Virus record (IMG/VR): IMGVR_UViG_3300017991_000056
Span: 32,001-96,000 of that record
DNA length: 64,000 nucleotides
Direction: 5' to 3' (one strand)
Source: a virus
Taxonomy: Duplodnaviria > Caudoviricetes
The notes beneath the pieces are model-generated. The model ran no database searches and was not told where the DNA came from. It saw nothing but the letters and a program-made list of their open reading frames with translations. Shown here one piece after another: positions 14,976 to 44,489 of the stretch (positions within the stretch are counted from its first letter, which is position 1; each line of letters opens with the position of its first letter). Both the position numbers and the translations under genes were made by a program.

Positions 14976-15203
14976 ATGGACGGCAAGATGATCGCGAGCG
15001 AGCTTCTCCTGGCGGCGAGGGACCTGGTCGGCGGCAAGGACGACAAGTGCGGCGAGAAGGGCTGCATCCGGCAGGTCGACGGGAAGTGGCGCGTGATGTC
15101 GGGCAAGACCGGCAAGCTGTGGCCCGCAAAGTACGACTCCGAGGGGTCCGCCAAGGACGCCCTGGACGCGTGGCACGCCAGCAGGTTCAAGGGAGCCAAG
15201 TGA
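14976..15203 (+). CDS. Small protein with helix tag (IASELLLAARDLVG)
   Basis: GAGGAGG RBS; tag motif. Confidence 0.75.
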   Translation: MDGKMIASELLLAARDLVGGKDDKCGEKGCIRQVDGKWRVMSGKTGKLWPAKYDSEGSAKDALDAWHASRFKGAK

Positions 15204-17464
15204 TGGACTCCAGAAGGTGCACGTCCGAGAGCTGCCAGGTCGCCGCGGCCAGGATGGCCCGGTTCGACGTCCCGGTTGCCTCCGTCCTGTTCGACCCGCA
15301 GGTCGAGTGGGCCAGGACGGCCTACGGCGGCGGCCGACGGGTGGCCAGGGCCATCGAGGTCGACTGGGACGAGTTCAACAGGGACGACTACCTTTTCAGC
15401 CATTGCACCATCGTCTCGTCCGTCCAGGTCGAGACCGACGAGTCCAAGCCCGGGGCCGGCTACTACATCGACCCGGTCTGTTCGGGCCTCGTGAACAACA
15501 ACGGCAATGCCTGGACCGACCCGGTCCTGCTGGCGACCTTCGGGACCTTCAGGGGCGCCCAGAACTACCTGGAGCACGTTCAGATACCGGAGCTGTCGAA
15601 GGGCAGGATACTGGACGCGGTCGTCAGGCCGGTCAGGTACAAGGACGACGAGGGGCGCGAGGCCAGTGTGAGCTACGTGGACATCCTGGTGGCGACCAGC
15701 AAGCGCCACGGCGGCCTCGTGGGCAAGATTGCCAGCGGCGAGATGAACGCGATGAGCATGGGGTGCTTCATGTCCGGCACGAGGGTGTTGATGGCTGATG
15801 GGACCACAAAGGCCATTGAAGATGTGATGGTTGGGGAGCGGGTTCGCACGCATAGCGGAGCTTCAGCCGAGGTCGAGTCGTGCAGGGTAAGATTTACGTC
15901 CGATGGCGAGACGAGACGCCTCGGGGTGAGCGGTGTGCCAGACACCTTCGTGACGGGAGAACATCCCTACTGGACGCTTACGGGCCATGATCGTTGTCCG
16001 GGATGTGGTGGCGATCTTCCGAAGAAGAGGGCTATTGCGAGCAACGGGTTGTCTGCCTTGGATAAGAAATCGTGGTGCTCTCATTCGTGTATGCAGTCCA
16101 ATTTCAACTCGTACTCGCCAGCGATGCAGGAGGTTGCGGTGTTGGTCGAGCAGGAGGTGAAGTTTGACTGGGTGAAAACAGAGGACCTTTTGGTGGGGGA
16201 TTACGTGGCGGTGCCGCTGGGGAGGCCAAAGGCCGAAAGGTCGTGTCTCGACAAGGCAAGGTGTCAGATACTTGGGTTCTATGCGGCGGAGGGGAACATC
16301 CAGAGAGACGCGAACGGCCTGGCGAGAGCGACGGAGTTCACTTTCGGGCTCGGCGAGTCGGTCGTGGAGGATTTGATCTCGGCTCTTCGCGATTGTGGGG
16401 TTGCGGATGAGGCGGTTTATCGCCAGGATAGGAAAAGGGATACCGGGGACAGCACTCGCGTTGTGGTTCATGATGCCGGGCTTGCCCTCTGGCTCCTAGA
16501 GTCCTGCGGGGAGCATTGTGATGGAAAGGTTCTGGCTCCGTGGGTGATGGGGCTTGACGACAATAGTCTCTTGGTGATTCTTGGAGCTTACATCGACGGA
16601 GACGGTCATTGTCGAAAGGACTCGGCAAGGTTTTCGACCTCGTCGTGCAGTAGGCGTCTCTCCGAGCAGGTCTGGAGCATGATGACGGCGCTCGGTATTC
16701 CGGCCTCTTTCAACGGGCCTTACGAGAAGGATGGGCGCAGGCCGTATTGGATGGTTGTGTCGCGGAAGGGCCATGCGTCGCGTTTGGAGGGTCGTTGTCG
16801 AAAGTATCGAAAGCAGCGAGCTGGTAGAGATCGCATCTCGTCTTTCCATGGGCACATGTTGAGGCGCGTGACCACCAACGAGCGCCTGGCAGGTTGCTAT
16901 CCGGTCTACAACATGCACGTGGTCAACGACCGTGGAGACCATTCCTACGTCGCGAACTGGAATGCGGTTCACAACTGCCTGGCTCATAAAATCCAGTGCT
17001 CCAAGTGCGGGGTGATCCTGGCCGACGAGGACCCCAACTGCGTCTGCATCGAGAGCGAGCTCATGCGCCCGTTCGTGGACGAGAACGGGGTGCGCAGGAT
17101 GACGGCCGAGCTGTGCGGCGTGTGCCTCTACGACCAGAACACCGGCAAGCTGGCCCGGGACGAGAACGGGAACCTGGTCGGCGATCCGAAGAGCCTGGAC
17201 TTCATCGAGGCGTCCTGGGTCGGGAGGCCGGCGTTCGGCGGGGCGGTCCTCAACCACTTCCTGTCCGACGTTCCGATGTCCGCGGCCAAGGTGCTGCGGA
17301 TGGACGCCCCGGACCTGGAGCTGGTGGCGAACGACATCTTCAGGATGCGCGTGGCGGACGCCGCGGGCATGATGGTTCTGAGGGTCGCGCGCGCGGAGAT
17401 GATCCGGCGCCGGCGGATGGAAATGGCCATGCGCGTGGCCCGGGGTTTCTGGAGGTTCGACTGA
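15203..17464 (+). CDS. Prohead (capsid maturation) serine protease containing an intein
   Basis: LEH...GRILDA...VDILVA...KIASG...SMG motifs, CSKCG zinc site, EASWV; located upstream of scaffold and capsid genes. Confidence 0.75.
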   Translation: MDSRRCTSESCQVAAARMARFDVPVASVLFDPQVEWARTAYGGGRRVARAIEVDWDEFNRDDYLFSHCTIVSSVQVETDESKPGAGYYIDPVCSGLVNNNGNAWTDPVLLATFGTFRGAQNYLEHVQIPELSKGRILDAVVRPVRYKDDEGREASVSYVDILVATSKRHGGLVGKIASGEMNAMSMGCFMSGTRVLMADGTTKAIEDVMVGERVRTHSGASAEVESCRVRFTSDGETRRLGVSGVPDTFVTGEHPYWTLTGHDRCPGCGGDLPKKRAIASNGLSALDKKSWCSHSCMQSNFNSYSPAMQEVAVLVEQEVKFDWVKTEDLLVGDYVAVPLGRPKAERSCLDKARCQILGFYAAEGNIQRDANGLARATEFTFGLGESVVEDLISALRDCGVADEAVYRQDRKRDTGDSTRVVVHDAGLALWLLESCGEHCDGKVLAPWVMGLDDNSLLVILGAYIDGDGHCRKDSARFSTSSCSRRLSEQVWSMMTALGIPASFNGPYEKDGRRPYWMVVSRKGHASRLEGRCRKYRKQRAGRDRISSFHGHMLRRVTTNERLAGCYPVYNMHVVNDRGDHSYVANWNAVHNCLAHKIQCSKCGVILADEDPNCVCIESELMRPFVDENGVRRMTAELCGVCLYDQNTGKLARDENGNLVGDPKSLDFIEASWVGRPAFGGAVLNHFLSDVPMSAAKVLRMDAPDLELVANDIFRMRVADAAGMMVLRVARAEMIRRRRMEMAMRVARGFWRFD
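15764..16975 (+). mobile_element. Intein (404 aa) with LAGLIDADG homing endonuclease
   Basis: N-terminus CFMSGTRVLMADG, block B TGEHP, ILGFYAAEG and ILGAYIDGDG, C-terminus HSYVANWNAVHN|C; lower GC. Confidence 0.95.
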
Positions 17465-17484
17465 CCAAGAAGGAGGATGACAGG

Positions 17485-17811
17485 ATGAGACGCAGGATGA
17501 CGAGCAGGAAAAGGACGGCGAGCGAGCCGAGGAGCATTCTCGCCGAGATCAGGGATGTCGAGAGGATGATCGAGGCCGTCGACGACGAGGAGCTGGCCAA
17601 GGACGCCCAGGGCCTGGCGAACGAGGACGAGGAGATCGTCAAGGAGTCGACGCCGGCGGACGTGGACGTGCCGTCCGGGGACATCCTCGACGAGAACGCC
17701 AAGGCGATGGACAACTGGCCGACCACGGCCCGACGGAAGTTCGCGGCCCGCCTCCTGAGGATCGCCGACATGATTCTCGCCGAGGAGGAAGAGGAGGAAT
17801 GCGGCGACTGA
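17485..17811 (+). CDS. Acidic head-morphogenesis (core/scaffold-like) protein
   Basis: AGGAGG RBS; between protease and capsid; FAARLLRIADMILA helix. Confidence 0.65.
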   Translation: MRRRMTSRKRTASEPRSILAEIRDVERMIEAVDDEELAKDAQGLANEDEEIVKESTPADVDVPSGDILDENAKAMDNWPTTARRKFAARLLRIADMILAEEEEEECGD

Positions 17812-17828
17812 CGGGTCGGAAGTGTAAC

Positions 17829-17857
17829 AATTCTTTTATATTCGCCTCATTTGATGA
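17829..17857 (+). promoter_or_regulatory. Putative phage promoter motif, copy 3 (capsid operon)
   Basis: AATTCTTTTATA. Confidence 0.55.
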
Positions 17858-17914
17858 GAGCGGTGCGTCCGCAGGATGGAATGAAGAGATGTGGTTGAGC
17901 AATAGGAGAGTCCA

Positions 17915-18460
17915 ATGAGCAAGGCTGTGATTGCAACCCTTCGAGGGGAAATCCGGGAGCTCGAACGGACGCTCTCCGGTCCTACTCGGAAGGCTTCTCG
18001 GGAACCTCGCCGGCGCGTGAGCGCAAGGGACAAGGTGATGGCCGAGATCAGGGACATGGAGGAGCGTCTCGGGTGCACGTACATGGAGGACGACGTGGAG
18101 GAGGAAGCCTTTCCCCTCATGGGTGTTGACGAGCTCGAGATGGCTCCCGCGTGCGGCGACCCGATGACGGCCTCCGAGACGGAGTCCGGAGTCGAGGACG
18201 AGATCACCCAGGACTACCTCTCCGACGTCGAGGACGAGGAGCACGGCACGGAGTTGGCGACCGATCCGACGACGCTGGCCGTCGGCGAGAAGGTCGGCGA
18301 CGGTTCCAAGCCCATGTTGGCGCGGTGGAAGAGGGCCTCGGCTCGTCTCGACCGCGTGTCTGACTATCTGGAGAAACACGGACAGGAGCGGCTCGCCCTG
18401 CGTATCGACCAGATCGCGGATCGCGTCGACGCCGCCATCAAAGAAGAGGAGGGCGAGTAG
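17915..18460 (+). CDS. Acidic scaffold/core-like protein
   Basis: AGGAG RBS; MAEIRDMEERL resembles LAEIRDVERMI of 17485. Confidence 0.7.
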   Translation: MSKAVIATLRGEIRELERTLSGPTRKASREPRRRVSARDKVMAEIRDMEERLGCTYMEDDVEEEAFPLMGVDELEMAPACGDPMTASETESGVEDEITQDYLSDVEDEEHGTELATDPTTLAVGEKVGDGSKPMLARWKRASARLDRVSDYLEKHGQERLALRIDQIADRVDAAIKEEEGE

Positions 18461-18462
18461 TC

Positions 18463-19467
18463 ATGGCAAAGAGAGTACGACTCACCCAGAGGCAGGCGCG
18501 GAGCAAGCGTGCGGTCGAGGACGGCATTCCCTATCCGGGGACGGTGAACCAGCCCGACAGGCAATTCAAGCGTCGCGACGAGTATGACAACTGGCAGGAG
18601 GTGGTCAACCACCCGCTGCCGGACATGAGGCACGACTGGAACTCCGACGAGCGCGACGACATCGGCTTCGGCATTCCAGAGGCCTGGGGCACGTCTCCGA
18701 CGACGGCCTCCGTGAAGGTCGGAGCCCACAAGGCGGTTCGCCTGGCGGTCCTGCTGCTCGGCGAGAAGACCCCAGAGGAAGTCGTCGAGGCGCAGGCCAT
18801 GGACTTCATGATGCTGGGGCCCGAGATCATGGACAAGACCCTGGAGCGCTACGCCGAGACGGCCAAGCTCTACCAGGCGTCCGAAGAGGACGAGGAGGCC
18901 ACCGAGGCCTCCGAGAAACCCAAGACCGCCAAGGCCGAGCCCAAGAAGGCCCAGGACGAAGAAGAGGAGGACGAGGAGGTCGTCGAGGAGGCCACCGAGG
19001 CTTCCGAGAAGCCCAAGACCGCCAAGGCCGAGCCCAAGAAGGCCCAGGACGAAGAAGAGGAGGACGAGGAGGCCACCGAGGCTTCCGAGAAGCCCAAGAC
19101 CGCCAAGGCCGAGCCCAAGAAGGCCCAGGACGAAGAAGAAGAGGACGAGGAGGTCGTCGAGGAGACCACCGAGGCGTCCGACGTCATGCCGAAGAAGCGG
19201 CTTGGCGAGTTCGACATCGAGCTCACGGGCTCGATTGACGGAGAAGACGACGTTGATCCGAAGACGGCCCGGGAACTGGGCGAGGCGCTCTTCGGGTCCG
19301 ACGACGTCGAGCCGGACCTCCCGCAGGTGCGGGAGGCGTCCGAAAAGAAGGGGATCGTGAAACTGGGCGGGCAGCCTCGTGTTGCCAGCGCCGGTGGAGC
19401 CGCTCCCGGTATTGGTGACATCTGGGGCAACCTCGACGCCCCCGACGTCAGCGCAGTGTTCAACTAG
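18463..19467 (+). CDS. Putative capsid scaffolding protein with E/K-rich repeats
   Basis: Position before decoration and MCP genes; highly charged; C-terminal DVSAVF. Confidence 0.65.
   Translation: MAKRVRLTQRQARSKRAVEDGIPYPGTVNQPDRQFKRRDEYDNWQEVVNHPLPDMRHDWNSDERDDIGFGIPEAWGTSPTTASVKVGAHKAVRLAVLLLGEKTPEEVVEAQAMDFMMLGPEIMDKTLERYAETAKLYQASEEDEEATEASEKPKTAKAEPKKAQDEEEEDEEVVEEATEASEKPKTAKAEPKKAQDEEEEDEEATEASEKPKTAKAEPKKAQDEEEEDEEVVEETTEASDVMPKKRLGEFDIELTGSIDGEDDVDPKTARELGEALFGSDDVEPDLPQVREASEKKGIVKLGGQPRVASAGGAAPGIGDIWGNLDAPDVSAVFN
18892..19179 (+). repeat. Three near-identical ~81-93 bp in-frame tandem repeats (EEATEASEKPKTAKAEPKKAQDEEEED)
   Basis: Visible in DNA and protein. Confidence 0.9.
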
Positions 19468-19481
19468 AGGAGGATTGAGAC

Positions 19482-19976: not shown

Positions 19977-20027
19977 CGCCGGAAGGCGTGGTGCGCGAAA
20001 CGCAACCACTAGAAGGAGGGTTTCAAC

Positions 20028-20888
20028 ATGGCAGTTGACAACCAGACCAAGCAGGAAATCATTTCCCAGCACATCCGCACGGCAGCCGGCCGCGCTCGCC
20101 TCGCTGCGAGCATGATTCAGCCGCTCAGGCGGCGCAGGGACTACACGAGCGTAGGGAGAAAGGCGTTTTACGTCGAGGCGTTGCCCGATGGCGCCCTGCC
20201 TATCTACGACAAGGACCCGAACGTGGTGGCCTACGTCATCGGCGAAGAGGGCGAGAACATCGTCTCGGTCGCGAAGCCGAAGCGCGTGATGTTCCCGCTG
20301 TTCGAGATCGCCTCGAACCCCGAGATCCAGCTGACCGAGATCAAGCAGCGGCGCTTCGACCTGATCGAGCGCTCCGTCGACCTCGGCAAGAGCGAGATCC
20401 AGGCCGAGGAGGACCGCAAGGTCTTCGCCGTCATGGACGCGCTCGCGGCCGACCCGACGAACCCGAACCCGCCGATCCCCGTCACGGGCAACCTGACGGC
20501 GAACGCGCTGGCCGACGCCTTCGCGAACATCGAACGCACCGACATCCGTGTCGCGACCGTGTTCCTGAACGCCAAGGACTACGCCGACCTGCGCAAGTGG
20601 GACCGGGACACGCTGGACATCGAGACCCAGGCGATCCTGCTGAAGACCGGGCTCATGGCCACCCTCTGGGGCGCCAAGCTCATGGTCAGCCGCATCGTCC
20701 CCGAGGGAACGGTGTACTGCTGCGGCGAGGCCGAGTTCTTCGGCCGCATGCCCGTCCGGACGGAGCTCACGGTCCTGTCCGCCGACGACCCCAAGAACAG
20801 GCTGATCGGCTTCAGCATGTTCGAGCAGCTCGGAATTGGGGCGTATAACCCCTTTTCCCTGCAGGTCCTTCAAATTACTCGTGTTTGA
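20028..20888 (+). CDS. Major capsid protein (HK97-like fold)
   Basis: Strong RBS and codon bias; IQAEEDRKVF, LWGAKLMVSRIVP motifs; followed by strong terminator. Confidence 0.85.
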   Translation: MAVDNQTKQEIISQHIRTAAGRARLAASMIQPLRRRRDYTSVGRKAFYVEALPDGALPIYDKDPNVVAYVIGEEGENIVSVAKPKRVMFPLFEIASNPEIQLTEIKQRRFDLIERSVDLGKSEIQAEEDRKVFAVMDALAADPTNPNPPIPVTGNLTANALADAFANIERTDIRVATVFLNAKDYADLRKWDRDTLDIETQAILLKTGLMATLWGAKLMVSRIVPEGTVYCCGEAEFFGRMPVRTELTVLSADDPKNRLIGFSMFEQLGIGAYNPFSLQVLQITRV

Positions 20889-21500: not shown

Positions 21501-21513
21501 CGTGGAGGAAGCG

Positions 21514-22809
21514 ATGATTTCAAAGGCAGTTTTGGGAGGGGGCGCCATCATCGGGGTGATTGCGGGCTTCTGGGGCAGCATCAAGCTCTATCTGACGAAG
21601 ATGTGTTCCCTTTTTGTCATACGCGCCCGTCTTGACGGCCACAACCCGACGTCGGCCATGTCTCATCTTCTCTGGACCGAGTTCAGGTGCTCCAGGCTCA
21701 CGAAGAAGTGCTACCGGGGCATCACCGACTACGTGAGGCCGAATCGGCGCAACGAGCTAGTCCTGTACGAGCGCCTGCCCGTGGAGCAGACGATCTTTTG
21801 GCGTGGGTGGAAGCCTCTGGCCGTGAAGGGTGATTCGTGGGGGGAAGGCTACTATCTTGACATCGTCTTCCTTCGGTGGACGTTTGACTCGGACGATCTC
21901 TTCACCGAGGCCATCAAGAAGTTCAACGCTCGCGGGCATAAAGAGGAGGCCCGTTTCTTCGTGAAGCGGATGACGGGCTCGATCGGGGACAAGATGGACA
22001 GCTTGGCGCTTCTCAGCTCGAAGGGGGAGGGCGCCGACATGGCGAGGTTCGCGGGCAACTCTGTCTCCAAATTGAACTCCCGTCCGGTCGGGTGGGGGTA
22101 TGATCAGCTGGGGCTTCCGAGAGCGGACAACGCCTTGGGGGCCTTGGCCCTTCCGAACGACGCGGAGCCCGCGATTGAGGAGGCGAAATGGTGGTTGGGC
22201 AATGAGGAGTGGTTCAAGGATCATCTCGTGCCCTGGAAGTACGGGTTGATGTTCGAGGGCCCGAGCGGCACCGGGAAGACCGCCACGGCTCGGTCGATCG
22301 GCCAGCATCTCGATCTTCCGATCTTCGTTTTCGACGTGGCCACCATGAACAACTCGGACTTCGTGGAGAAGTGGGGCGAGATGATTGAGAAGAGCCCGTG
22401 CATTGCCTTGTTCGAGGACCTCGACAATGTCTTCGAGGGCCGCGTGAACATCGTGAAGAGCGGCAACGAGGCCGTGCTGACGTTCGACTGCTTCCTGAAC
22501 TGCCTGGACGGCGTCGACAGCACTGACGGGGTCTTCGTCATCATCACGACCAACCACATCGACAAGTTGGATGCAGCTCTCGGGGTGAACAATGGGGGCG
22601 ACATATCGACGCGACCGGGCCGCGTTGATCGGGTTGTTCATTTTGGGCCGCTCGACGAGATGGGTAGGAGAAAGATTGCCGCTCGCATCTTCGAAGGCTT
22701 CGAGGTAAGCGAGTGGGAGCATCTTGTTGCAGAGGGGGATGGCGATACGGGGGCTCGGTTTCAGGCACGTTGCTGCCGCCTCGTGAGAAAGTTGAAAGGG
22801 AGGCGATGA
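21514..22809 (+). CDS. BCS1-like AAA+ ATPase with N-terminal membrane anchor
   Basis: Walker A GPSGTGKT, Walker B FEDLD, LNCLDG, TTNH, RPGRVD. Confidence 0.85.
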   Translation: MISKAVLGGGAIIGVIAGFWGSIKLYLTKMCSLFVIRARLDGHNPTSAMSHLLWTEFRCSRLTKKCYRGITDYVRPNRRNELVLYERLPVEQTIFWRGWKPLAVKGDSWGEGYYLDIVFLRWTFDSDDLFTEAIKKFNARGHKEEARFFVKRMTGSIGDKMDSLALLSSKGEGADMARFAGNSVSKLNSRPVGWGYDQLGLPRADNALGALALPNDAEPAIEEAKWWLGNEEWFKDHLVPWKYGLMFEGPSGTGKTATARSIGQHLDLPIFVFDVATMNNSDFVEKWGEMIEKSPCIALFEDLDNVFEGRVNIVKSGNEAVLTFDCFLNCLDGVDSTDGVFVIITTNHIDKLDAALGVNNGGDISTRPGRVDRVVHFGPLDEMGRRKIAARIFEGFEVSEWEHLVAEGDGDTGARFQARCCRLVRKLKGRR

Positions 22810-30155: not shown

Positions 30156-30793
30156 GTTTCCGGAAGCCGAGCGGCAGGATGGAGAGGACGATCTTCGACG
30201 AGCTGGTCAGCAAGACCAACGCCTTCGGGGCCAGGTGGTTCACCGTGGCCGACCTGGCGGGCGACGTCGGGGCCGAGGGGCGGGAGGCCGCGACCTCCCT
30301 CTTCAGGAAGGCGCTGGCGGAGCGCCGGGACGGCAGGGGCGGCATGGAGCTGAGGCTCCCGCTGGACGTGCACGAGAGGCTGTACGAGCCCAGGATCGCC
30401 CGGAGGGTGGCGAGGAGGTTTGCTGGCGATGATGACGAGTTGTACGACGCCGTGACCGACTTCCTCTCGACCCATCCCGAACCGGATGACAAGGTCTTTC
30501 ACGAATGGGCCGAGGCTCATGGCTATGACACGCACGAGGCCGAGGCCGCGGCCTACAAGCTGGCGACTAAGGCGGCCAACTTCCTCAAGGGCGGGAGGGC
30601 CAGTGCGGTTGGTTTCACAAGGGAAGATGCCGATCCCGACGAGCTGGCCATGGGCATCGAGATCGAGTACGAGCACACGCCAGATAAGTCCACGGCTCAG
30701 AGGATCGCTCTCGACCACCTGGCCGAGCTGGACGACTACTACACCAGGCTCAAGGCCATGGAGGCCGAGGGCGAGGATGAAGGGGACGACTGA
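30152..30793 (+). CDS. Protein with C-terminal DUF5661-like domain
   Basis: MGIEIEYEHT...IALDHL.E..DYYTRL motif; internal RRVARRF. Confidence 0.7.
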   Translation: MSFRKPSGRMERTIFDELVSKTNAFGARWFTVADLAGDVGAEGREAATSLFRKALAERRDGRGGMELRLPLDVHERLYEPRIARRVARRFAGDDDELYDAVTDFLSTHPEPDDKVFHEWAEAHGYDTHEAEAAAYKLATKAANFLKGGRASAVGFTREDADPDELAMGIEIEYEHTPDKSTAQRIALDHLAELDDYYTRLKAMEAEGEDEGDD

Positions 30794-31473
30794 TGAACGG
30801 GATCAGGCTGGCATCTGAGCTGGTGACGCTGGCGAGGGAGATCGCGGCCAAGAGGATCACGGTCCACTACGATGCCGTCGACGGCTATCACGAGAAGCGG
30901 TCGTACTCGACGGTCGAGAAGGCGCGCAACTACGCCTGGAAGTGGGTTGGCAAGCATCCCGAGGTTGGTTTCGGGTATGCCGTGTCGACAGACGGCGTTG
31001 GCAAGGTCTCGGTGGACGGCATCACCATCGAGGAGTTGTTTCGCACGTCCGCCGACGAGAAGCGCCTGGAACGCGAGGAATACGAGAGCAACCTCAAGCG
31101 GGCCAAGGGGTTGTTCGCCGAGATTGCGAAGGTCGTGGCGAAGCCGGCTGTCGCGGTCTTGAAGAAGGCCGGACTGGACAATGTCAAGTCCGAGACCAGC
31201 TGGGACCGGAACGGCGGGTTCGTGACCGTTCACGGTGACCTGCCGGGGTGGACGAGGGGCAGCAACAACATGCTCCTTCAGGTTTTCGTGAACTACGAGC
31301 CGCAGGCCATCGGCAGGTTCTACGTCTTCTGGCGCGTGCTCGACAGGGAGAACACGATTTACGGCGACCTGGACTTCGATCCGAGGAGGTTGCGAGGGTT
31401 GGACAGGCTCCTGAAGGAGAAGGTCGACGAGAAGATCACAGAGAACCTAACAAAGACTCTCGGGAGAATGTGA
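30793..31473 (+). CDS. Helix-tagged hypothetical protein (LASELVTLAREIAA)
   Basis: Coupled ORF; tag motif. Confidence 0.75.
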   Translation: MNGIRLASELVTLAREIAAKRITVHYDAVDGYHEKRSYSTVEKARNYAWKWVGKHPEVGFGYAVSTDGVGKVSVDGITIEELFRTSADEKRLEREEYESNLKRAKGLFAEIAKVVAKPAVAVLKKAGLDNVKSETSWDRNGGFVTVHGDLPGWTRGSNNMLLQVFVNYEPQAIGRFYVFWRVLDRENTIYGDLDFDPRRLRGLDRLLKEKVDEKITENLTKTLGRM

Positions 31474-32183: not shown

Positions 32184-32390
32184 ATGGACGAGAGAGTGAT
32201 AGCCGACAGGGTGGCGGGGCGCGTGGCGAAGCGCGTCTTTCTGGAGCGGGACGTCGAGAGGCTCAGGCGAGAGATCGACGGGCTTCTGGGCGTCGCGGTT
32301 CAGATGGGCAACTCGGAGGAGGTCGTGAGGGCTCTTGAGAAGGCGAAGGACGCGACGTACGAGGTGGTCACGGGCGTCAAGCTGGGATGA
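32184..32390 (+). CDS. Small helical protein (IADRVAGRVAKRVF)
   Basis: AAGGAG RBS. Confidence 0.65.
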   Translation: MDERVIADRVAGRVAKRVFLERDVERLRREIDGLLGVAVQMGNSEEVVRALEKAKDATYEVVTGVKLG

Positions 32391-32430: not shown

Positions 32431-33165
32431 ATGGACAGAGTAGTGATTGCGAGCAGGCTGGTTCGGCTGGCTGGCAGCATTCTCGGACCGGGAGTGCCCG
32501 ATGGAACGGGACTGATGAGCGGGACGGGCGCGTGCCCGCTTGAAGACGAGGAGTTTGTGGAGGGAGAGCCGGAGGTTGTCGGGGATGTCGATGTGGCGTC
32601 CGCCCTGACCGATCTCGCCCGGAAGCTTGTCGGCAAGAAGGGTGAGGTCCCGGAGGCCTTTAAGAAGCAGTGGAAGAACAAGGACAAGGACGGCGACGGC
32701 AAGGAGAACGAGCCCAAGCCCGATTTCGTCAAGGAGATCGAGAAGAAGAAGAAGGGCAAGAAGGCCGGCACGATTCTGGGGCCTGGCATCCCGGACGGCA
32801 CCGGCCCGATGAGAGGTACCGGCATGTGCCCGATGGACGACGACGAGGAGGAGATCATCGAGGGCGAGCCTGAGATCATCGAGGACCTCAGTGTCGCGTC
32901 CGAGCTCGTGAAGTTGGCCAAGAAGGTGGTGGCTGACTGGAACGAGGACGAGGATGCAGATGCGTTGCGTGACAAGGCGATACGTGAGTTCGCGAAGCAT
33001 ACGGGCGGCGAACGCATTCTGACTGCTATGAAGGTCAGGGGGAAGTGGACCGTGTTCACGACCGAGTTGGGGGCATATCGGATTGCTCGTGCCTACCGGA
33101 CGGCCTGGAAAGATGTGGGCGTGAGCAAGAACATCCACAGGGGTTCATGGTACGTCAACCTTTGA
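32431..33165 (+). CDS. Modular protein with three helix tags and a duplicated GPG.PDGTG.M.GTG.CP module
   Basis: AAGGAG RBS; repeats visible in translation. Confidence 0.75.
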   Translation: MDRVVIASRLVRLAGSILGPGVPDGTGLMSGTGACPLEDEEFVEGEPEVVGDVDVASALTDLARKLVGKKGEVPEAFKKQWKNKDKDGDGKENEPKPDFVKEIEKKKKGKKAGTILGPGIPDGTGPMRGTGMCPMDDDEEEIIEGEPEIIEDLSVASELVKLAKKVVADWNEDEDADALRDKAIREFAKHTGGERILTAMKVRGKWTVFTTELGAYRIARAYRTAWKDVGVSKNIHRGSWYVNL

Positions 33166-33287: not shown

Positions 33288-33803
33288 ATGGCAGGATCGA
33301 CAACGGCAAGTGCAGCACGGGAACTGGCCCGGTTGGCCAGAGTGCTGCTTGCTGGTGCTTCCTACCATGGTCTGGATGATTCTATGGCGCGGCAGATTGC
33401 CGGGAACATAAACGCCATGTTGAATGGCGAACCAGGCAAGATCGAAGGCGTCATGTTGTCAGGATGGTCTGGCAATCCTCTTTGGGATGCCGTGTCGGCG
33501 GTGAATGACGACGGTATGGCTGATGGAATGTCGGGTGCGTGGGACGATTGCATGTTCCGTTCCGGTCTATTGGCAGCCGCGACAATGATCCACATCTACG
33601 ATGCTCAAATGACAGATGGCCCTGGAGATACCTTCTACGATCCAGAGGAGACGCCATACTGGCGCAAGATTTTCCGAATCATTGTTGATGGGATTAACTG
33701 GAGCTTGTTGCTTGATGCGGACGATTTGCCTCCTTTGCGCGAGTGCGAGAAGGAGCGGTTGGCCAGCATCGGAAGTCTATACTCGAAGTATTTCTCACGA
33801 TGA
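33288..33803 (+). CDS. Helix-tagged hypothetical protein (AARELARLARVLLA), lower GC
   Basis: GAGGAG RBS; tag motif. Confidence 0.7.
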   Translation: MAGSTTASAARELARLARVLLAGASYHGLDDSMARQIAGNINAMLNGEPGKIEGVMLSGWSGNPLWDAVSAVNDDGMADGMSGAWDDCMFRSGLLAAATMIHIYDAQMTDGPGDTFYDPEETPYWRKIFRIIVDGINWSLLLDADDLPPLRECEKERLASIGSLYSKYFSR

Positions 33804-34669: not shown

Positions 34670-35080
34670 ATGGCTTGGAATGGAACAGCATCGAGTTGGC
34701 AGTATGCCAGATGGGTCTGGATCATCGCCAGGAACATGAGGATCACGGAGCCGACCGGAGCCGAGCTGATCGCGGTCAGGACGTTCCTCAAGGCGATCTG
34801 GAACCCGATCACCCAGACCGGCACGCGTCCGTGGCTCGCGTCCATGTGCCAGGAGAAGGCGGTGAACCCCGGTGACGACTACGCCTGCAACCTGGACAAC
34901 GAGCCGACGCACGTCCTGGTCGAGATTCTGGGCGCCGTCGGGCGCAACCTCGACGACATCCCGATCACGGATGCCGAGGCCATCCTCGTCAACGCGTTGA
35001 TCGCAGCGACGGGCAACAGGCGATACGGGACAGGTCCGCAGTTCGGCGGAGTCGGTGGATCGAATGTCACCGTTCCGTAA
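34670..35080 (+). CDS. Hypothetical (likely virion) protein
   Basis: AAGGAG RBS; strong codon bias. Confidence 0.75.
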   Translation: MAWNGTASSWQYARWVWIIARNMRITEPTGAELIAVRTFLKAIWNPITQTGTRPWLASMCQEKAVNPGDDYACNLDNEPTHVLVEILGAVGRNLDDIPITDAEAILVNALIAATGNRRYGTGPQFGGVGGSNVTVP

Positions 35081-35090: not shown

Positions 35091-35372
35091 ATGGGCAGGA
35101 TTGAGATCGCGAGAGAGCTCGTCCGGATGGCCAGGTCGGTGGAGTCGGCTTCCAGGTCGGCTGCCGACGTGATCCCGTTCGACGTTTCCAGGGACCTGAA
35201 GAGGGTCGGTCTCGTCGTGACGGGGGGAGAGCAGGTCGGTCCTTCCGTCTACGTGGCGGTTCGGAACCAGACGATCGGGAAGGCCCAGATGAGGGCTCTC
35301 CTGGCGATGCCCGCCTTCCAGCTGGTCGGGGCCTCTGCCGGCAGGGGCCTGGAGCTGATGTTCGACATCTAG
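35091..35372 (+). CDS. Helix-tagged small protein (IARELVRMARSVES)
   Basis: AAGGAGG RBS; tag motif. Confidence 0.75.
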   Translation: MGRIEIARELVRMARSVESASRSAADVIPFDVSRDLKRVGLVVTGGEQVGPSVYVAVRNQTIGKAQMRALLAMPAFQLVGASAGRGLELMFDI

Positions 35373-37225: not shown

Positions 37226-37615
37226 ATGCAAGATGTTGCTTTCGAATTGGCGAGGATGGCGAGGGAGTTAGTCTCCTATGGGGACGAGGAGCTGGCAAAG
37301 GAGCTTGAGGCGTCGTCTGGTGCGGTGGCGTCTGCGGTTTCCAAGCTGGTGGGGTTTACGCCGTCTTTCAAGGTCAAGAACGACACGTATGGCGTGAAGT
37401 TCACGCAGGCCGGGCTTGAAGGTCGTGCCGGCGTGATAAGCTCCGCGGTCAGGTCCGTGGCCTTGGTCGTGTTTTTCAACAAGACGGTCCAACGGGACGG
37501 GAGCTTGGCGGGCGATGTGAAGTTCGAGGTGACTCCCAGGGAGGGACGGAAATCCACGGACTACGTTGTCGGGTATGCGGCTGTTAGGTTCTTTCCTGGA
37601 GGCAAGGTGAGATGA
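37226..37615 (+). CDS. Helix-tagged hypothetical protein (VAFELARMARELVS)
   Basis: AAGGAGG RBS; tag motif. Confidence 0.75.
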   Translation: MQDVAFELARMARELVSYGDEELAKELEASSGAVASAVSKLVGFTPSFKVKNDTYGVKFTQAGLEGRAGVISSAVRSVALVVFFNKTVQRDGSLAGDVKFEVTPREGRKSTDYVVGYAAVRFFPGGKVR

Positions 37616-38004
37616 GGGACCTGTTGGCAAGGGAGCTGACGGGGCTCGCGAGGGCCCTGGTTGCCAAGGAGAGGCCCTCGGACCTTTTCGGCGGATCGTT
37701 CTTCGACTTCCGCGAGAAGCTCAAGAAGCTGAAGAGGGACGAGGCTGAGAGGATCAGGGCCAAGCTGGAGGCGAAGATCAACGCCGACCTGACGCAGAAG
37801 GGGGCCAGGCCCGTCGAGGGGGTGGCCGTGAAGCTGGGCAGCTATCGGGGCTCGGCTTTCATCACCTCCGCCAAGATGAAGGTCAAGGTCCAGGGTGAGA
37901 ATGCGGCCCGGGAGCTCCTGGCGTACCTGCAGAGGGCGTACAGCCCGAAGTACAAGCTCAAGGGCGTGACCGAGGACGGGATCGCCTCCTACAACATCAG
38001 GTGA
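37612..38004 (+). CDS. Helix-tagged basic protein (LARELTGLARALVA)
   Basis: ATGA coupling; tag motif. Confidence 0.75.
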   Translation: MRDLLARELTGLARALVAKERPSDLFGGSFFDFREKLKKLKRDEAERIRAKLEAKINADLTQKGARPVEGVAVKLGSYRGSAFITSAKMKVKVQGENAARELLAYLQRAYSPKYKLKGVTEDGIASYNIR

Positions 38005-38018
38005 CGGAACGGAGCTGG

Positions 38019-38053
38019 AAGGGGGCCGGGGACAACCCGGCCCCCTTTTTTTT
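38019..38053 (+). terminator. Intrinsic terminator
   Basis: gggggccggg-gacaa-cccggccccc plus T8. Confidence 0.85.
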
Positions 38054-38108: not shown

Positions 38109-38651
38109 GTGGAGAAGCCGACGTACATGGGGCTGAGGAAGGACCTGGGGTCCTGCGCGGTGGTGTTCGAGCTGCGTGGTGTCCGGTACTCGTACGAGAT
38201 GGAATGCCGGGACGCCTACGCGGCGGACTGGCTGGCCGGGAAGTCGGTGTGGAAGGCTATGAACTATGCCAAGAAGAGGGCATGGAAGATGAGGAAGCGA
38301 GATGCGGCGAGAGAGCTGCTGGCGGTGGCCAGGGAGATCGCGGGAGCCCATGACTGGTCGGTGAGTCGGCACGTGGTCGGCAGGAAGCCGTCGAGGAGGT
38401 TCGGGGTCATCTACGAGCTGTCGTGGGTGGGCGCTCCGTACTGGACATCCGAGGAGGACAGGAAGGCGCTGGCCGACGAGATGGTCGACGACTACCGGGA
38501 GCTGATGCGGGACCACGGATGGAAGGCGAAGCTCGAGCCCATCCGGAAGCTGGGATGGGATCGCTGGCAGGGCGTGATGAGCGCGGGCTACGAAGGTGAC
38601 CAGGAGGAGGCGGAGGCGCAGCTGGCGAGGCTGGGCTTCGACTTGCGGTGA
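38109..38651 (+). CDS. Two-module protein with internal helix tag (AARELLAVAREIAG)
   Basis: GGAG RBS before GTG 38109; start uncertain. Confidence 0.65.
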   Translation: MEKPTYMGLRKDLGSCAVVFELRGVRYSYEMECRDAYAADWLAGKSVWKAMNYAKKRAWKMRKRDAARELLAVAREIAGAHDWSVSRHVVGRKPSRRFGVIYELSWVGAPYWTSEEDRKALADEMVDDYRELMRDHGWKAKLEPIRKLGWDRWQGVMSAGYEGDQEEAEAQLARLGFDLR

Positions 38652-39474: not shown

Positions 39475-40137
39475 ATGGTGGTACGTCAAGGTGAAATCTA
39501 CAAGCTTGATCTTAGGAAGGCCTTGGTCGATGCGGGAGCCTGGGCTATTCCCCAGTGGCAGAAGACTGTCAGGCTGCTGTATCGTCGGAGTGATGGGTAC
39601 GTCATGGTTGAGAAGGTCCGAGGGGATGTAGCGGACGTCTACGATGCAGTAAACCCGGCTGGCAGGATGCTGGGTTCGATTCGGGTGCCCGTGTCGGCCC
39701 TCAGGGCTGCAAGCACAAGGAGTGGGGCGGTGACGAAGGAGGAGGCAGCAAGAGAGCTTGTGGCGATGGCCAGGGAGATTGTCGGGGCGAGTCCGAAGGA
39801 GGCCCTCCTGGGGTTGTATCTGTGGGCCACCACGGGAGACCGCACTGGCAACCCCTACTCGAAGACTGAGGTGAGGGAGGCGATCAAGGCGCTGGGTGAC
39901 AGTAGCGGCTTCGACATCCCGAATAAGCGTCCTTCTGGGAAGGTGCTTGGCGCCCTCTACGACCTGGCCGTGTGGGCCACGACCGGGAACAGAGCAGGGA
40001 ACCCGCATGCCGTGAATGAGGTCAAGGCGGCCAACAGGGCTCTTGGCGGCGATGGCTTCGACCTGCCGAAGGGTCTCACGTCGTCGAAGGTGGCTGCCGG
40101 CTCCAAGATGGAGCATGGTATGCTCCGAAGGGCGTGA
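39475..40137 (+). CDS. Protein with internal helix tag (AARELVAMAREIVG) and duplicated WATTG.R.GNP module
   Basis: Strong RBS; repeats in translation. Confidence 0.7.
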   Translation: MVVRQGEIYKLDLRKALVDAGAWAIPQWQKTVRLLYRRSDGYVMVEKVRGDVADVYDAVNPAGRMLGSIRVPVSALRAASTRSGAVTKEEAARELVAMAREIVGASPKEALLGLYLWATTGDRTGNPYSKTEVREAIKALGDSSGFDIPNKRPSGKVLGALYDLAVWATTGNRAGNPHAVNEVKAANRALGGDGFDLPKGLTSSKVAAGSKMEHGMLRRA

Positions 40138-40198
40138 GGTCCTACGTTCCGAGGGGCACGAACCTGGCAGTCTAAGAGTACGAGAAAGGCATTGAGCA

Positions 40199-40573: not shown

Positions 40574-40586
40574 GAGAGTTCCCGCG

Positions 40587-40883: not shown

Positions 40884-40924
40884 CCAGCCCAATGACAACG
40901 TCTGTCTCTTGAGGAGTGCTTGAG

Positions 40925-41413: not shown

Positions 41414-41423
41414 GAGATGTGAG

Positions 41424-41654
41424 ATGAACAGGAAGATGGTCGCGAGAGAGCTGACGAGGATGGCGAGGGAGGTGGCGGCGGTTCACTCTCCGGAGGCGCA
41501 GGAGGTCATTCAGGCCCTCAGGCCTGTCAAGGGTGCCGTCGTGAAGCTCCGCAAGGCGATTAAAGACCAAGGGGATGACCGCGAGGCCGATGGCGTCTAT
41601 CTCGATCTGACGAAGATGATCGACGAGATGGTCCGGGAACTGAAAAAGCACTGA
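41424..41654 (+). CDS. Helix-tagged small protein (VARELTRMAREVAA)
   Basis: AGGAG RBS; tag motif. Confidence 0.75.
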   Translation: MNRKMVARELTRMAREVAAVHSPEAQEVIQALRPVKGAVVKLRKAIKDQGDDREADGVYLDLTKMIDEMVRELKKH

Positions 41655-41656
41655 GG

Positions 41657-42217
41657 ATGGCGGGCATGGACATCGACATGGAGCTTGAGTTCGACCGTGG
41701 CGACCTGGACAGCTACGCCATGAACCGGCTGCACTCGCAGGTGCAGGTGTTGGTGGAGACGATCCGGGGCAACGAGGGGCTGGAGACGGTCGTGGTCCGG
41801 AGCGACGACGCCGCCGCCATGCGGCTCGGGATCGGGGTGTCCGACCACGAGCAGAAGCGGGCGATCCTGGAGGGGGTGGCGGACCGGGCCCAGATGTGGG
41901 AGAGGAAGCTGAAGAGGTCGATGGCGGCGTCGGAGCTGCTCGTGCTGGCCAGGGAAGTCGTGGGAGCCCGGAGGGTTGTTACGAAGGGCCGTTGGCCGAG
42001 CACGACGTTTGTGGTCGGGCCGTTCCACTACTCTGTGGACCACGAGACGGTGACGGTGACGAAGGACACGTCGTCCGGCATCGAGAGCGTGGCCGTGTAC
42101 GACTACTCCGGGAAGGGGCGCAGGGAGCGAGGCCAGAGGAGACCGACGCCGGAGGCCGACTGGGAGCATGCCGAGGAGATGGCGTGGAGGATGGCGCAGA
42201 AGCAGGCGAGAGCCTGA
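41657..42217 (+). CDS. Two-module protein with internal helix tag (AASELLVLAREVVG)
   Basis: ORF; tag motif. Confidence 0.7.
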   Translation: MAGMDIDMELEFDRGDLDSYAMNRLHSQVQVLVETIRGNEGLETVVVRSDDAAAMRLGIGVSDHEQKRAILEGVADRAQMWERKLKRSMAASELLVLAREVVGARRVVTKGRWPSTTFVVGPFHYSVDHETVTVTKDTSSGIESVAVYDYSGKGRRERGQRRPTPEADWEHAEEMAWRMAQKQARA

Positions 42218-42304
42218 TGAGGACTGGCGATGGACGAGGATGCCGGGCTGGGCTAGGGAGACGATCCGATCTACACGAATCCTTCAAATATAATAAAAAC
42301 GCTG

Positions 42305-42835
42305 GTGGCGCTGCTGGAGCGGAACGCGGTCCAGATAAACCGGTGCGTCCAGGCCTACCAGCCGTCGAACAGCCTGTGCGTCTTCGAGGGCATGAGGAAC
42401 GTGCTCCCGGTGGACGCCTATCCGTCCTTCGAGATCGAGCCGACTAACACGAACGACGAGTGGGCGACGACGAGGGCGCAGCGGCCCAGGTACAACTTCA
42501 CCTGCACGCTGACGGTGAATAACTCGAACGAGAAGTTGGGGGTCGAGTACGTGGCGACGCTGGCGACCCTGCTGGGGGCGATCATGACGAGTCCGGAGAA
42601 CCTTCAGCTCAGGGTGCTGAACGAGACGAAGTGGAGCCTGGCGGGCGGCTTGACGGACACCTACATTCTGGACAGCCTCGTCGAGGACATCTCGTACGGC
42701 GTCTTCCACGAGGGGACCATCCGCGTGGCGGAGTTCTCGTGGTTCGCGACGATCAACGAGACCTATCCGGACAGCAAGTTCCGGGTGGGCGACCACTCGG
42801 TTCCGACGATTCTGATGCCGATGATCGCGGCATAG
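42305..42835 (+). CDS. Putative tail terminator/completion protein (start uncertain, may extend to 42269)
   Basis: YPSFEIEP motif; position between neck and tube genes. Confidence 0.55.
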   Translation: MALLERNAVQINRCVQAYQPSNSLCVFEGMRNVLPVDAYPSFEIEPTNTNDEWATTRAQRPRYNFTCTLTVNNSNEKLGVEYVATLATLLGAIMTSPENLQLRVLNETKWSLAGGLTDTYILDSLVEDISYGVFHEGTIRVAEFSWFATINETYPDSKFRVGDHSVPTILMPMIAA

Positions 42836-42839
42836 TCAT

Positions 42840-42868
42840 AATTCTTTGATACTTGAGCCATGTTTGAG
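42840..42868 (+). promoter_or_regulatory. Putative phage promoter motif, copy 7 (tail operon)
   Basis: AATTCTTTGATA. Confidence 0.55.
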
Positions 42869-42876
42869 GCGACAGC

Positions 42877-43384
42877 ATGAACGCCGAAAGCGCAGACAGG
42901 GCCGCGAAGGCCGTAGGGAAGCAGGATTTGCCGGGGCTGGCGGACGCGGTGATAGATGCCGGCGAGAAGTCGTACCAGGCGAACCTGGAGGCGATCAAGA
43001 GCCTGGTTGTTCTCGGAGACGAGGAGGGCGGAGCGAAGGCCCTCCGGGAGATGACGGATGGAATCGGCCCGTGGGCCAAGGCGTTCGAGGAGGTCGGCAA
43101 GGCGGCCGACGCTGCCGCCAAGACGATCCAGACGGCCCTTCGCGCGACTCCGGACCATGGACTCGGTCAGGAGCCTGGTGGAGGGGAACGCGATCGTCAA
43201 GAAGGCGGCGGAGGGGCTGGAGGCGGCTCGCAGGGAGCTGTTGCGACCTGGGCTGGCGGACGGGCGTCGAGAGGAGCTGCTCGAGGACATGCTGTTCTTC
43301 GCCGAGGCCGCGGGGAAGGCCGCGAAGGGCGCCGTCGGCGACGTGAGGGACCTCGGGAAGCGCGTAGAGGCTTGGATGAAGTAG
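42877..43384 (+). pseudogene. Helical protein gene split by a +1 frameshift near 43135-43141
   Basis: Coding-like translation moves from the 42877 frame to the 43058 frame at GCC CTT C. Confidence 0.5.
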
Positions 43385-43394
43385 GAAAACGACG

Positions 43395-44201
43395 ATGCCT
43401 CTGATAGACACGACAACGCTGCTGAAGATCGCCGACCGGGCGGCCGCGCAGTACAGGTACATCAATGACGCCTTCGCCCAGCTGAGCCAGGAGGGCGGGA
43501 GCTACTACTTCGACCTGGTCTCCCTGACGAACGATCCGGATGTGGAGATACCGTGCGACAGAAACTACCAGCTCGTCGATGACACGCTGGTCGACGAGGG
43601 AGCTCCCTTCGCCGCCCACCACGGGACGAGGATGGCGAACATCATCGGGTCCATGGAGGCCCATTTCAACAGGACGGACAACACCGGGACCGTGCTCCAG
43701 GCGGGTGGATGGGACGGCTACCTGACCGACCATGACGAGAGGGTGAGCTGGTGGTTCGCCGCCCTCTTCTACGCCGTCAAGTCGTACCGGATGCTGGCGA
43801 ACGACGTCTTCAGCGAGACCGACGACGTCTTCGCCACCCTGGAGATGCTGGCGGGTCCGACCCTGGACTTCACCGACGGGGTGAACTACGGGAACGGGAG
43901 CCAGCTCAATCCGGCGGACGGGAGCGACTACGCGGCGACGCAGCTCAAGGTCGTGGTTGACACCTTCGGGGCCTCCGACCTGGACATAAGGCTGGGCGTG
44001 AAGGACGTGGACGACCTTCCGACCACGATAGACGTGACGGTGCCGGGCGGCTCCGCGCCGGGAGCCGAAATCCCGGTCGGCGCGACGTCCAACAGGTTCC
44101 TGGACGTGATCGGGGCCTCCCTGATCCCGTTTGGGAGCTTCGGCACGCTCGGTGACAAGGTGACGGTCAACAACCTCAAGGAAAGACAGGTCTCCCTGTA
44201 G
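43395..44201 (+). CDS. Putative tail structural protein
   Basis: Acidic, strong codon bias, in tail operon. Confidence 0.7.
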   Translation: MPLIDTTTLLKIADRAAAQYRYINDAFAQLSQEGGSYYFDLVSLTNDPDVEIPCDRNYQLVDDTLVDEGAPFAAHHGTRMANIIGSMEAHFNRTDNTGTVLQAGGWDGYLTDHDERVSWWFAALFYAVKSYRMLANDVFSETDDVFATLEMLAGPTLDFTDGVNYGNGSQLNPADGSDYAATQLKVVVDTFGASDLDIRLGVKDVDDLPTTIDVTVPGGSAPGAEIPVGATSNRFLDVIGASLIPFGSFGTLGDKVTVNNLKERQVSL

Positions 44202-44225
44202 GGGGCTGAAAAGGAGGATAGTGTC

Positions 44226-44489
44226 ATGGGTATGGGTCGCAAGCGCATAGCATGAGAGCTTCTCCGTGTGGTCCGCGAACTCGTAGGCAAGGACCTTGAG
44301 GTCAACAAGCTGAACAAGATAGAGACGCAGGTTCGCGTCGATGGAAAGCTCAAATACACGATCACGAAGGCCACCTACAGTCGTCCTGTGTATTACGATG
44401 TGACAGGGCTCGGCCCACGGGGAACGGTTCGGCAGTACAGTACCTACAAGGGTGCATTGAAAGCGATAGAGAAGGCTGAAGGGGTCTAG
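44226..44489 (+). pseudogene. Helix-tagged small gene with in-frame TGA at 44253 (MGMGRKRIA*ELLRVVRELVG...)
   Basis: RBS and ATG in frame with ORF 44268..44489; stop falls on the tag's Arg/Ser position. Confidence 0.65.

Follow-up and report, generated by a model that had tools for sequence, protein, structure and literature searches.

Why should a dozen open reading frames (ORFs) in the head and tail region of one phage genome share the same short helix, when their proteins are otherwise dissimilar? The DNA in question, called the window here, is the whole stretch of 64,000 nucleotides that was analysed. It covers bases 32,001-96,000 of the 133,403-bp IMG/VR virus record IMGVR_UViG_3300017991_000056, which is G000 in the comparisons below. 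The helix is a peptide tag of 19 residues counted from the Met: the Met itself, an Asp/Asn cap and the 14-residue core [IV]-A-x-E-L-[VL]-x-h-A-[KR]-x-L-x-[AGS], with a helix length of about 18 residues. An earlier note, made from the letters alone, had listed 14 copies in 12 ORFs and had read them as a signal for loading cargo into the capsid. The answer favoured here is that the tag is a docking helix which addresses cargo proteins to the prohead, and this is given about an even chance of being right.

Five relatives serve for comparison. Two are rich in tags: G001 (53% G+C, capsid protein 93% identical to that of G000) and G005 (49% G+C, 87% identical). G004 is tag-poor; it is 202 kb long and 62% complete, with a capsid protein that is again 87% identical. 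G006 is complete at 470 kb, and its capsid protein is 69% identical to that of G000. The last is Tunturi_5, a cultured relative, which is an acidobacterial jumbo phage of 309 kb.

All 14 copies are present where they had been listed, at window positions 14991, 30808, 32446, 32593, 32893, 33312, 35106, 37235, 37624, 38304, 39745, 41439, 41924 and 44247. A first hidden Markov model (HMM) took eight N-terminal window copies as seeds, selected by their coordinates, and was run on a six-frame translation of the whole record. Among the copies that were not seeds, it recovers 39745 (12.7 bits), 41924 (11.9), 32893 (7.7), 38304 (5.4) and 32593 (3.6). The best off-target match in the record scores 5.6 bits, which means that 38304 and 32593 are inseparable from noise with this model. 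With a second-generation model 38304 rises to 11.6 bits, and 32593 is still weak. Good matches in G000 are all on the plus strand and in the coding frame, within window positions 14991-41924.

The enrichment expected by the earlier note is borne out. With a model that was trained on 37 of them, 58 matches of at least 7 bits are found in G000, G001 and G005 together, against 1 in the reversed sequences and 1, 3 and 1 in three shuffles. The independent evidence is what the eight-seed model finds in G001 and G005: without training on other genomes, it already detects many copies there. By genome, matches of at least 7 bits on the gene strand number 11 in G000, 28 in G001 and 18 in G005, plus 1 on the other strand of G005. 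In the capsid-gene loci of 80 relatives (822 kb), 86 such matches are on the gene strand versus 2 on the opposite strand.

Elsewhere the motif is scarce. G004 has 2 matches in its 202 kb. G006 has a single match of at least 7 bits, partial and on the non-gene strand, which is taken as chance, and there are zero in Tunturi_5. A profile search of 5.8 billion proteins, in which 8,000 candidates were scored, listed 65 at E <=10. By the second model, 57 of these 65 have one tag or more, several of them two or three; all 65 are named 'hypothetical protein'. The motif is beyond chance by far.

The window and 100 loci together hold 138 matches. A start codon lies 1-8 codons upstream in 115 of them, 16 are C-terminal and 7 are internal, without a start codon close by. 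The 115 correspond to 95 unique tagged proteins of 40-706 aa, with the logo M-[DN]-x-x-[RK]-[IV]-A-[RKS]-E-L-[VL]-x-[VLI]-A-[KR]-[ESD]-L-x-[AGS]. Met and motif are exactly 5 apart in 59 of these proteins. Core frequencies, which are inflated because the proteins were picked with the model, are 92/95 for Ala2, 78/95 for Glu4, 91/95 for Leu5, 95/95 for Ala9, 89/95 for Lys/Arg10 and 76/95 for Leu12. The sharp boundary is unaffected by this choice: from motif position 15 on, the information is below 0.8 bit per position.

On a wheel projection of the helix, the invariant residues, small and aliphatic, would share one face, bordered on either side by Glu4 and Lys/Arg10. When AlphaFold2 models the tagged protein at 37612, the tag falls in a helix that spans residues 2-17 (block pLDDT 68-69), and a 7-residue break at 18-24 comes next.

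The codons that encode the tag vary. In the 95 proteins, Ala9 is encoded 35 times by GCC, 31 times by GCG, 18 times by GCA and 11 times by GCT, and all six codons are in use for Leu5. Pairwise nucleotide identity is 0.52, 0.70 and 0.33 at codon positions 1, 2 and 3. Selection on the tag acts at the protein level.

What follows the tag is different nearly every time, as had been claimed. The cargo of 51 tagged proteins from three genomes falls into 49 BLASTP components at E <=1e-3. On the 95 tagged proteins Pfam recognises only 24 families, each in one or two members; they include zinc ribbons, DUF7007, DUF5661, MORN, rubrerythrin/EncFtn-like and WGR. None of the 24 is a known counter-defence family, which leaves the suggestion of anti-defence or host-takeover effectors unsupported.

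Just one tagged protein is clearly identifiable as an enzyme, the CCA-adding enzyme (a tRNA nucleotidyltransferase; phrog_2244, E 2e-54), encoded at L029:329-1843 in G001 and around 65.1 kb in G005. Its N-terminal tag-like helix is weak in G001 and scores 9.2 bits in G005, and its orthologues in G004 (50% identical) and Tunturi_5 start without the tag. Four more cargo domains (5 of 7 rows) have homologues in G006, G004 or Tunturi_5 with no canonical tag upstream; those in G006 begin with helices of another kind. Known domains gain and lose the tag. The tag is a portable module, at the level of protein, on unrelated proteins.

It is also confined to one part of the genome. In G000 all 11 matches of at least 7 bits lie at genome 46,991-73,924, from the gene just 5' of the protease to the tail-tube-like gene. 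The 33 kb that hold glycosyltransferases, the large terminase (23.6 kb on the record map) and the portal (27.8 kb) are free of tags. Nor are tags found among the replication genes, where the 39 kb with helicase (genome 94.3 kb) and DNA polymerase (genome 115 kb) has none; this agrees with the earlier note.

Its statement that all copies are in late structural operons was checked in part: the capsid protein and the protease are identified, and the tail tube has a weak, sub-threshold Pfam match. This match comes from a 76%-identical, full-length homologue of the tail-tube-like gene at 45.8-46.6 kb, which reaches Phage_tube_2 at E 4.5e-5 with 23.6 bits, below the 27-bit cut-off.

Within this part, tagged genes alternate with genes whose presence and order are kept in G001, G005 and G004 (34670, 35469, 36633, 36946, 38662, 40587, 40925, 42401 and 43395). 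A gene is counted as conserved here if it has a homologue over half its length or more in G001 or G005. This is so for 2 of the 11 tagged genes versus 74 of the 110 untagged ones. For the untagged genes of the same region the figure is 22 of 39, and 16 of 29 for the proteins of up to 250 aa there.

G004 packs this set of core genes, capsid protein to tube, into about 10 kb (118.3-128.5 kb), without a tagged insert. The capsid-to-tube stretch of G000 takes about 26 kb (window 20.0-46.6 kb). The low conservation of the tagged genes, the empty slot in G004 and the lack of tags in G006 and Tunturi_5 all indicate that tagged genes belong to the accessory genome, as cassettes that occupy one fixed slot among the structural genes, and that the system is lineage-specific.

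A head protein carries the helix as well. Small acidic scaffold-like proteins are encoded at window 17485-19467, between the protease and the capsid gene. One of them, the small acidic head-module protein gpS (108 aa, 17485-17811, plus strand), ends in a tag-like helix at 17740-17781 and an acidic tail. A second, of 181 aa (17915-18460, plus strand), has a C-terminal amphipathic helix at 18392-18433; its scaffold-like role is suggested by position and composition, and it matches no family. A further scaffold-like protein is encoded at 18463-19467.

The earlier note had called both helices related to the tag. In G000 they are below the model threshold, with 0.5 bit for gpS, but the gpS orthologues do reach it: 11 of 18 orthologue rows score 7-13.3 bits at the C-terminus. 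These rows are also 11 of the 16 C-terminal tag matches in the window and the 100 loci. Nearly all other rows keep Ala2/Leu5/Ala9/[KR]10/Leu, with Lys, Arg or Ser in place of Glu4, and nearly all 18 keep V-A-x-x-L-x-x-h-A-[KR]-x-[LI]-L. The orthologues are acidic proteins of about 100 aa, with their gene between protease and capsid gene. They end in '...NWP-x(5-9)-V-A-[RK]-K-L-V-x-L-A-[KR]-[ED]-L-L', after which comes the stop.

At its N-terminus gpS is similar to the acidic protein that comes next, which is larger. In G004, one 242-aa protein combines a gpS-type N-terminus with the C-terminus of the larger acidic protein, and there is no separate gpS. For these two reasons gpS is probably a scaffold-related protein; family searches for it give no match that supports the scaffold name.

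Is the tag cut off? The earlier note had assumed removal by the prohead protease, as for the capsid-targeting sequence (CTS) of T4 internal proteins. The T4 CTS is cut after Glu. A head maturation protease is encoded in the window too, and here Glu4 is inside the helix and the junction between tag and cargo is without a conserved residue. The 95-protein logo has no conserved residue at the junction or after it, and with less than 0.8 bit beyond position 14 nothing marks a site for the protease; the assumed removal is not supported. Reading A-x-E as a cleavage site is not supported, given a Glu4 that lies within the helix and a junction that varies. No sign of the tag being cut off is seen in these alignments.

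A double-glycine leader, as in bacteriocins or ribosomally made, modified peptides (RiPPs), was considered as well and rejected. Such leaders end in Gly-Gly or Gly-Ala, which is followed by a short core peptide. Here position 14 is A in 50, G in 25 and S in 16 of the 95 proteins, and position 15 is variable (A 22, G 18, others). Cargo size also contradicts it, with proteins of 40-706 aa.

Given that there is no recognisable cut site, and that copies may be C-terminal, internal or multiple, a binding module fits better than a removable propeptide. Of the earlier packaging-signal reading, what survives is that the tag is portable, confined to the head-to-tail part and shared with a scaffold-like protein; cleavage, injection and the effector role are not supported.

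The docking-helix reading, with its roughly even chance, is based on the link to the head module, the confinement in the genome and the parallel with T4 internal proteins. In this model the conserved face, small and hydrophobic (Ala2, Leu5, Ala9, Leu12) with Glu4 and Lys/Arg10 as flanks, would pack into a helical groove of some component of the assembling prohead. Since the same kind of helix ends gpS, cargo most likely shares the gpS contact: tagged proteins would use the contact by which gpS enters the prohead, and would co-assemble into the head. The cargo set is a fast-changing accessory repertoire, carried as cassettes between conserved head genes and neck and tail genes. Binding to a prohead component, packaging and any delivery into the host are inferred. 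When two copies of the capsid protein were co-folded with residues 1-36 of the 35091 protein, the score was 0.00 against a mark of 0.32, without controls; this speaks neither for nor against binding.

Three known systems bear a likeness to this. T4 internal proteins are described, in a passage of PMC3012670, as diverse defence proteins which have the CTS alone in common and are loaded into the scaffolding core. The likeness is that of a short N-terminal peptide on diverse, fast-evolving proteins encoded near head genes (IPI-III and Alt in T4). As in T4, one terminal peptide is found on unrelated proteins, 51 of them in 49 BLAST components here. The genes again sit by head-assembly genes in a variable locus (2 of 11 conserved versus 74 of 110, and an empty slot in G004). 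Unlike the CTS, the tag is a longer helix of about 18 residues, is also C-terminal, internal or multiple, and has no conserved junction residue.

Scaffolding proteins are known to bind coat protein through C-terminal helices, as in P22 gp8, and such helices are mimicked by other proteins, as for the 80alpha scaffold and SaPI1 CpmB. What is alike here is a terminal amphipathic helix on a scaffold-like head protein (11 of 18 gpS rows at 7 bits or more) that is also found on others. The difference is that it is here on dozens of unrelated small proteins, mostly at the N-terminus, and is known from sequence alone.

Encapsulins likewise bring varied cargo to the inside of a shell of HK97 fold by means of a short terminal peptide. 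A short terminal peptide and an HK97-type shell are present here too, and among the 95 tagged proteins there is 1 that weakly matches rubrerythrin/EncFtn-like families (E 1.8e-6 and 2.8e-5). However, this genome has terminase, portal and tail-fibre-like genes, which rule out an encapsulin shell operon, and the motif is different, helical and mostly N-terminal. With about an even chance, the tag is a CTS-like address with a different, helical code in a phage-G-related lineage.

Several points weigh against the prohead as the address. Packaging has been measured in no phage of this clade, and the cultured relative, Tunturi_5, is without the tag; the terms 'mass spectrometry' and 'structural proteins' do not occur in the Tunturi_5 paper. 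A CCA-adding enzyme is an odd cargo for a capsid, and a cytoplasmic hub fits it at least as well. About 10-15% of the copies are behind 90-130 in-frame codons, and some proteins have two or three; such copies, with no conserved cleavage motif at the junction, are unlike the T4 signal. G004, with its 87%-identical capsid protein and 2 matches, means that the capsid protein alone does not predict tags. In G000 itself the helix of gpS has diverged, down to the 0.5 bit given above. Late expression of the tagged genes, finally, is assumed from their position.

A bolder version is possible, and is held to be somewhat less probable than an even chance. It says that the tag is a copy of the helix with which the scaffold-like protein enters the prohead, so that any protein with these 19 residues would be loaded and delivered with the DNA. 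The cargo would be a swappable, strain-specific payload of around a tenth of the genes, down to a tRNA-repair enzyme. If true, this would be a natural programmable protein-delivery system, with a scope wider than that of the T4 internal proteins. Should the helix load proteins into the capsid at all, the 'internal protein' principle of T4 would reach as far as a distant lineage whose code is another one, and helical; the end of a scaffold-like protein would be the suggested origin of that code.

There would be practical use in this as well. If the helix loads proteins, the injected or internal proteome of abundant, uncultured giant phages could be read from sequence alone. It would further single out a pool of unknown small proteins whose action probably falls at the very start of infection, and the helix could serve as a short natural tag by which foreign proteins are packed into large capsids. 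A literature search with six versions of the motif string gave no match. A search on targeting sequences of jumbo phages found nothing that describes the tag, as judged at the level of search results.

What else might gather such proteins? The tag may be a docking peptide for a hub outside the capsid, that is, a cytoplasmic phage or host protein (an assembly platform, a chaperone or unfoldase, or a translation/tRNA complex) that collects small phage proteins. This is unlikely, and it does account for some of the data. A CCA-adding tRNA enzyme is among the clients in G001 and G005, copies may be internal or multiple, the cargo has no recognisable virion function, and the number of tags does not track capsid-protein identity, as G004 illustrates. 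But the same helix also closes a scaffold-like protein whose gene lies between those of the protease and the capsid, and tagged genes are found only in the head-to-tail stretch, with none in the replication part. Presence and absence over the five genomes also gave no candidate hub. Four G000 proteins are found in G001 and G005 and not in G004, G006 and Tunturi_5, namely genome 26612, 33328, the tagged 37612 gene and 112656; because G004 is only 62% complete, nothing is drawn from these receptor candidates.

Another idea is that the helices bind each other. In an Ala-spaced antiparallel or multi-helix coiled coil, small proteins would dimerise or form mixed bundles, also with gpS, and the tag would have no address function. 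Ala2 and Ala9 are seven apart, and together with Leu5, Leu12 and the hydrophobic positions 1, 6 and 8 they would form a wide small-residue face, which can be read as a coiled coil. Proteins with two or three copies exist, and gpS bears the same helix. Self-association alone does not explain the clustering around head genes, though, and if gpS is the partner the idea merges with that of loading into the capsid. It is improbable as a separate answer.

Less credible still is that the helix lies in the plane of the membrane as an anchor and so holds the proteins at the inner side of the cell membrane. The helix is indeed amphipathic and N-terminal, and the cargo of the 37612 protein, a long helix with a ferredoxin-like domain, resembles membrane-anchored GspL/PilO proteins (Z 8.3-8.5). 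Against this, the non-polar face is mostly Ala, Leu and Val, with almost no aromatics and a conserved Glu, the helix is also at the C-terminus of an acidic scaffold-like protein, and the Z values are in the range which the tool associates with common arrangements.

A last idea is that the tag is a relic of gene origin. A common 5' cassette of ribosome site and first codons would have been spread by recombination or homing endonucleases, and its use would be in expression. This can draw on short nucleotide repeats that cover several tags and their upstream bases at 62-87% identity (families D4, D7 and D9), but is largely excluded by the codon evidence, with conservation at the amino-acid level and near-random third positions. 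A motif that holds across genomes of 49-64% GC, and helices at C-termini and inside proteins, also count against it, and it has very little probability left.

The docking helix thus remains the favoured reading, and the tagged genes of the window, all on the plus strand, can be described one by one. The first encodes 75 aa at 14976-15203, directly 5' of the protease gene, with its tag at 14991-15032 (13.4 bits in the first model, 14.8 in the second). A tagged gene of different content is found directly upstream of the protease in each of G000, G001 and G005. The gene at 30793-31473 (226 aa, tag 30808-30849) encodes a protein without a Pfam or PHROG family and without a relative in IMG/VR or in G001/G005; the ESM Atlas gives no usable match for it (TM <=0.39).

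A protein of 244 aa at 32431-33165 has three tags, at 32446-32487, 32593-32634 (the weak one) and 32893-32934. They are joined by repeated low-complexity linkers, and the linker module is in common with a two-tag WGR/zinc-ribbon protein of G001. As to that module, 'GEVPEAFKKQWK.KDKD.DGKENEPKPDF' follows the tags of both 32431-33165 and G001 86205-87179 (76-90% identity over 31-42 aa). There is a repeated 'GPG.PDGTG.M.GTG.CP' stretch as well, and the last part of the G001 protein is made up of double zinc ribbons and a WGR domain.

At 33288-33803 (171 aa) the tag, 33312-33353, comes 8 residues after the Met and scores 8.5 bits in the first model and 6.8 in the second. The top-scoring copy, with 17.9 bits, is at 35106-35147 in the 93-aa gene 35091-35372. 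The next gene, 37226-37615 (129 aa, tag 37235-37276), has a weak relative in G001, at 29% over 112 aa. A 76-aa gene at 41424-41654 has its tag at 41439-41480, with 15.8 bits. No PHROG family, and no Pfam family above threshold, was found for ten tagged window proteins.

The gene at 37612-38004 (130 aa, tag 37624-37665) is one of the 2 of 11 tagged genes conserved in relatives. In its AlphaFold2 model, the break after the tag is followed by a long helix, 25-62, and then by an alpha/beta, ferredoxin-like domain. In fold comparison, periplasmic domains of the GspL/PilO type come first (Z 8.3-8.5, with an rmsd of 2.6-2.9 for 73-74 residues), and phage neck and terminator proteins next (Z 5.3-6.5); the tool warns that matches in this range can be common arrangements. 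Foldseek with this cargo against the PDB gives none at E <=0.001.

Three ORFs had been listed with internal copies: 38109-38651 (tag 38304-38345, 11.6 bits in the second model), 39475-40137 (tag 39745-39786, 12.7 bits) and 41657-42217 (tag 41924-41965, 11.9 bits). The positions are right, but a start codon with a weak Shine-Dalgarno sequence lies 1-5 codons upstream of each, so that these copies may have starts of their own, at ATG 38289, GTG 39730 and ATG 41921. The flanks of the three copies are mutually unrelated (z <1). A strong hairpin like an intrinsic terminator is at 38017-38049, with a 14-bp stem, 10 G-C pairs and a T run. It comes right after gene 37612-38004 and just upstream of the 38109 ORF, inside a long ORF that starts at 38001.

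The last tagged gene, 44226-44489, is broken by a TGA at 44253-44255, within its tag at 44247-44288. This tag also has Val at the otherwise invariant Ala9. Position 44253 is C in contigs of three other public runs (X1-X3), which makes the codon CGA (Arg), and T in run X5 and in the window. Part of the population or of the assemblies therefore has an unbroken gene.

The prohead protease at 15203-17464 (plus strand) contains an intein with a LAGLIDADG endonuclease (Hom_end_hint E 1e-7, LAGLIDADG_3 E 3.4e-7). Its intein-free orthologue in G001 (354 aa) matches phrog_18299, head maturation protease, at E 3.3e-11, and the G000 and G001 sequences meet at '...MSMGC | ...C'. There is no meaningful match to PDB sequences and none in Pfam. 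A second terminal motif, R-V-A-R/S-G/S-[FVI]-W, is at the C-terminal end of the protease in G000 (17440-17464), G001 and G005, and similar strings start a few small proteins, for example 32184-32390. As a regular expression, R-[VI]-A-x-x-[FVIW] was rejected as unspecific, with 9 matches in the tag-less Tunturi_5.

G000 has 64% G+C, a CheckV completeness of 39% and nearly all of its genes on one strand. The major capsid protein is of HK97 type (286 aa, 20028-20888, plus strand; phrog_2522, E 3.4e-54); the gene at 18463 was rejected for this role. The capsid protein is 37% identical to gp27 of Bacillus phage G, 48% to the Tunturi_5 protein and 68% to that of a 485-kb uncultured phage, and identity is 67-94% across the 80 IMG/VR loci that were kept. 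It is matched by 1,699 database proteins at E <=1e-5, with PF05065/PF25209 in relatives. By these matches the record is a piece of the genome of a giant phage, whose clade is large, uncultured and related to phage G. A megablast of 20 kb against phage records found no match.

Some neighbours of the tagged genes deserve mention. Besides these genes, the extra content of the G000 capsid-to-tube stretch is a tmRNA/tRNA region (the label of an earlier note), a methyltransferase/GT-D fusion and receiver-like proteins. Genes 14597-14965 and 34670-35080 are paralogous, each directly upstream of a tagged gene (14976 and 35091). The second is conserved in G001, G005 and G004, and the first matches the same G001 gene at 32% identity.

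The 268-aa protein of 43395-44201 is conserved, with 86 cluster representatives and identity down to 26%. AlphaFold2 predicts a helical bundle and a jelly roll for it (pLDDT 96.8). Foldseek against the PDB gives none at E <=0.001, VIA gives Z <=5.8 with generic jelly rolls only, and BFVD has one match, an uncharacterised haloarchaeal virus protein at E 1.8e-4.

Further along, a collagen-like tail-fibre protein is encoded at 58.7 kb. Just 3' of the capsid gene there is an AAA ATPase (21502-22809; PF00004, E 3.3e-15) with a hydrophobic N-terminal stretch, and its relatives in G001 and G005 are weak and lie elsewhere in those genomes.

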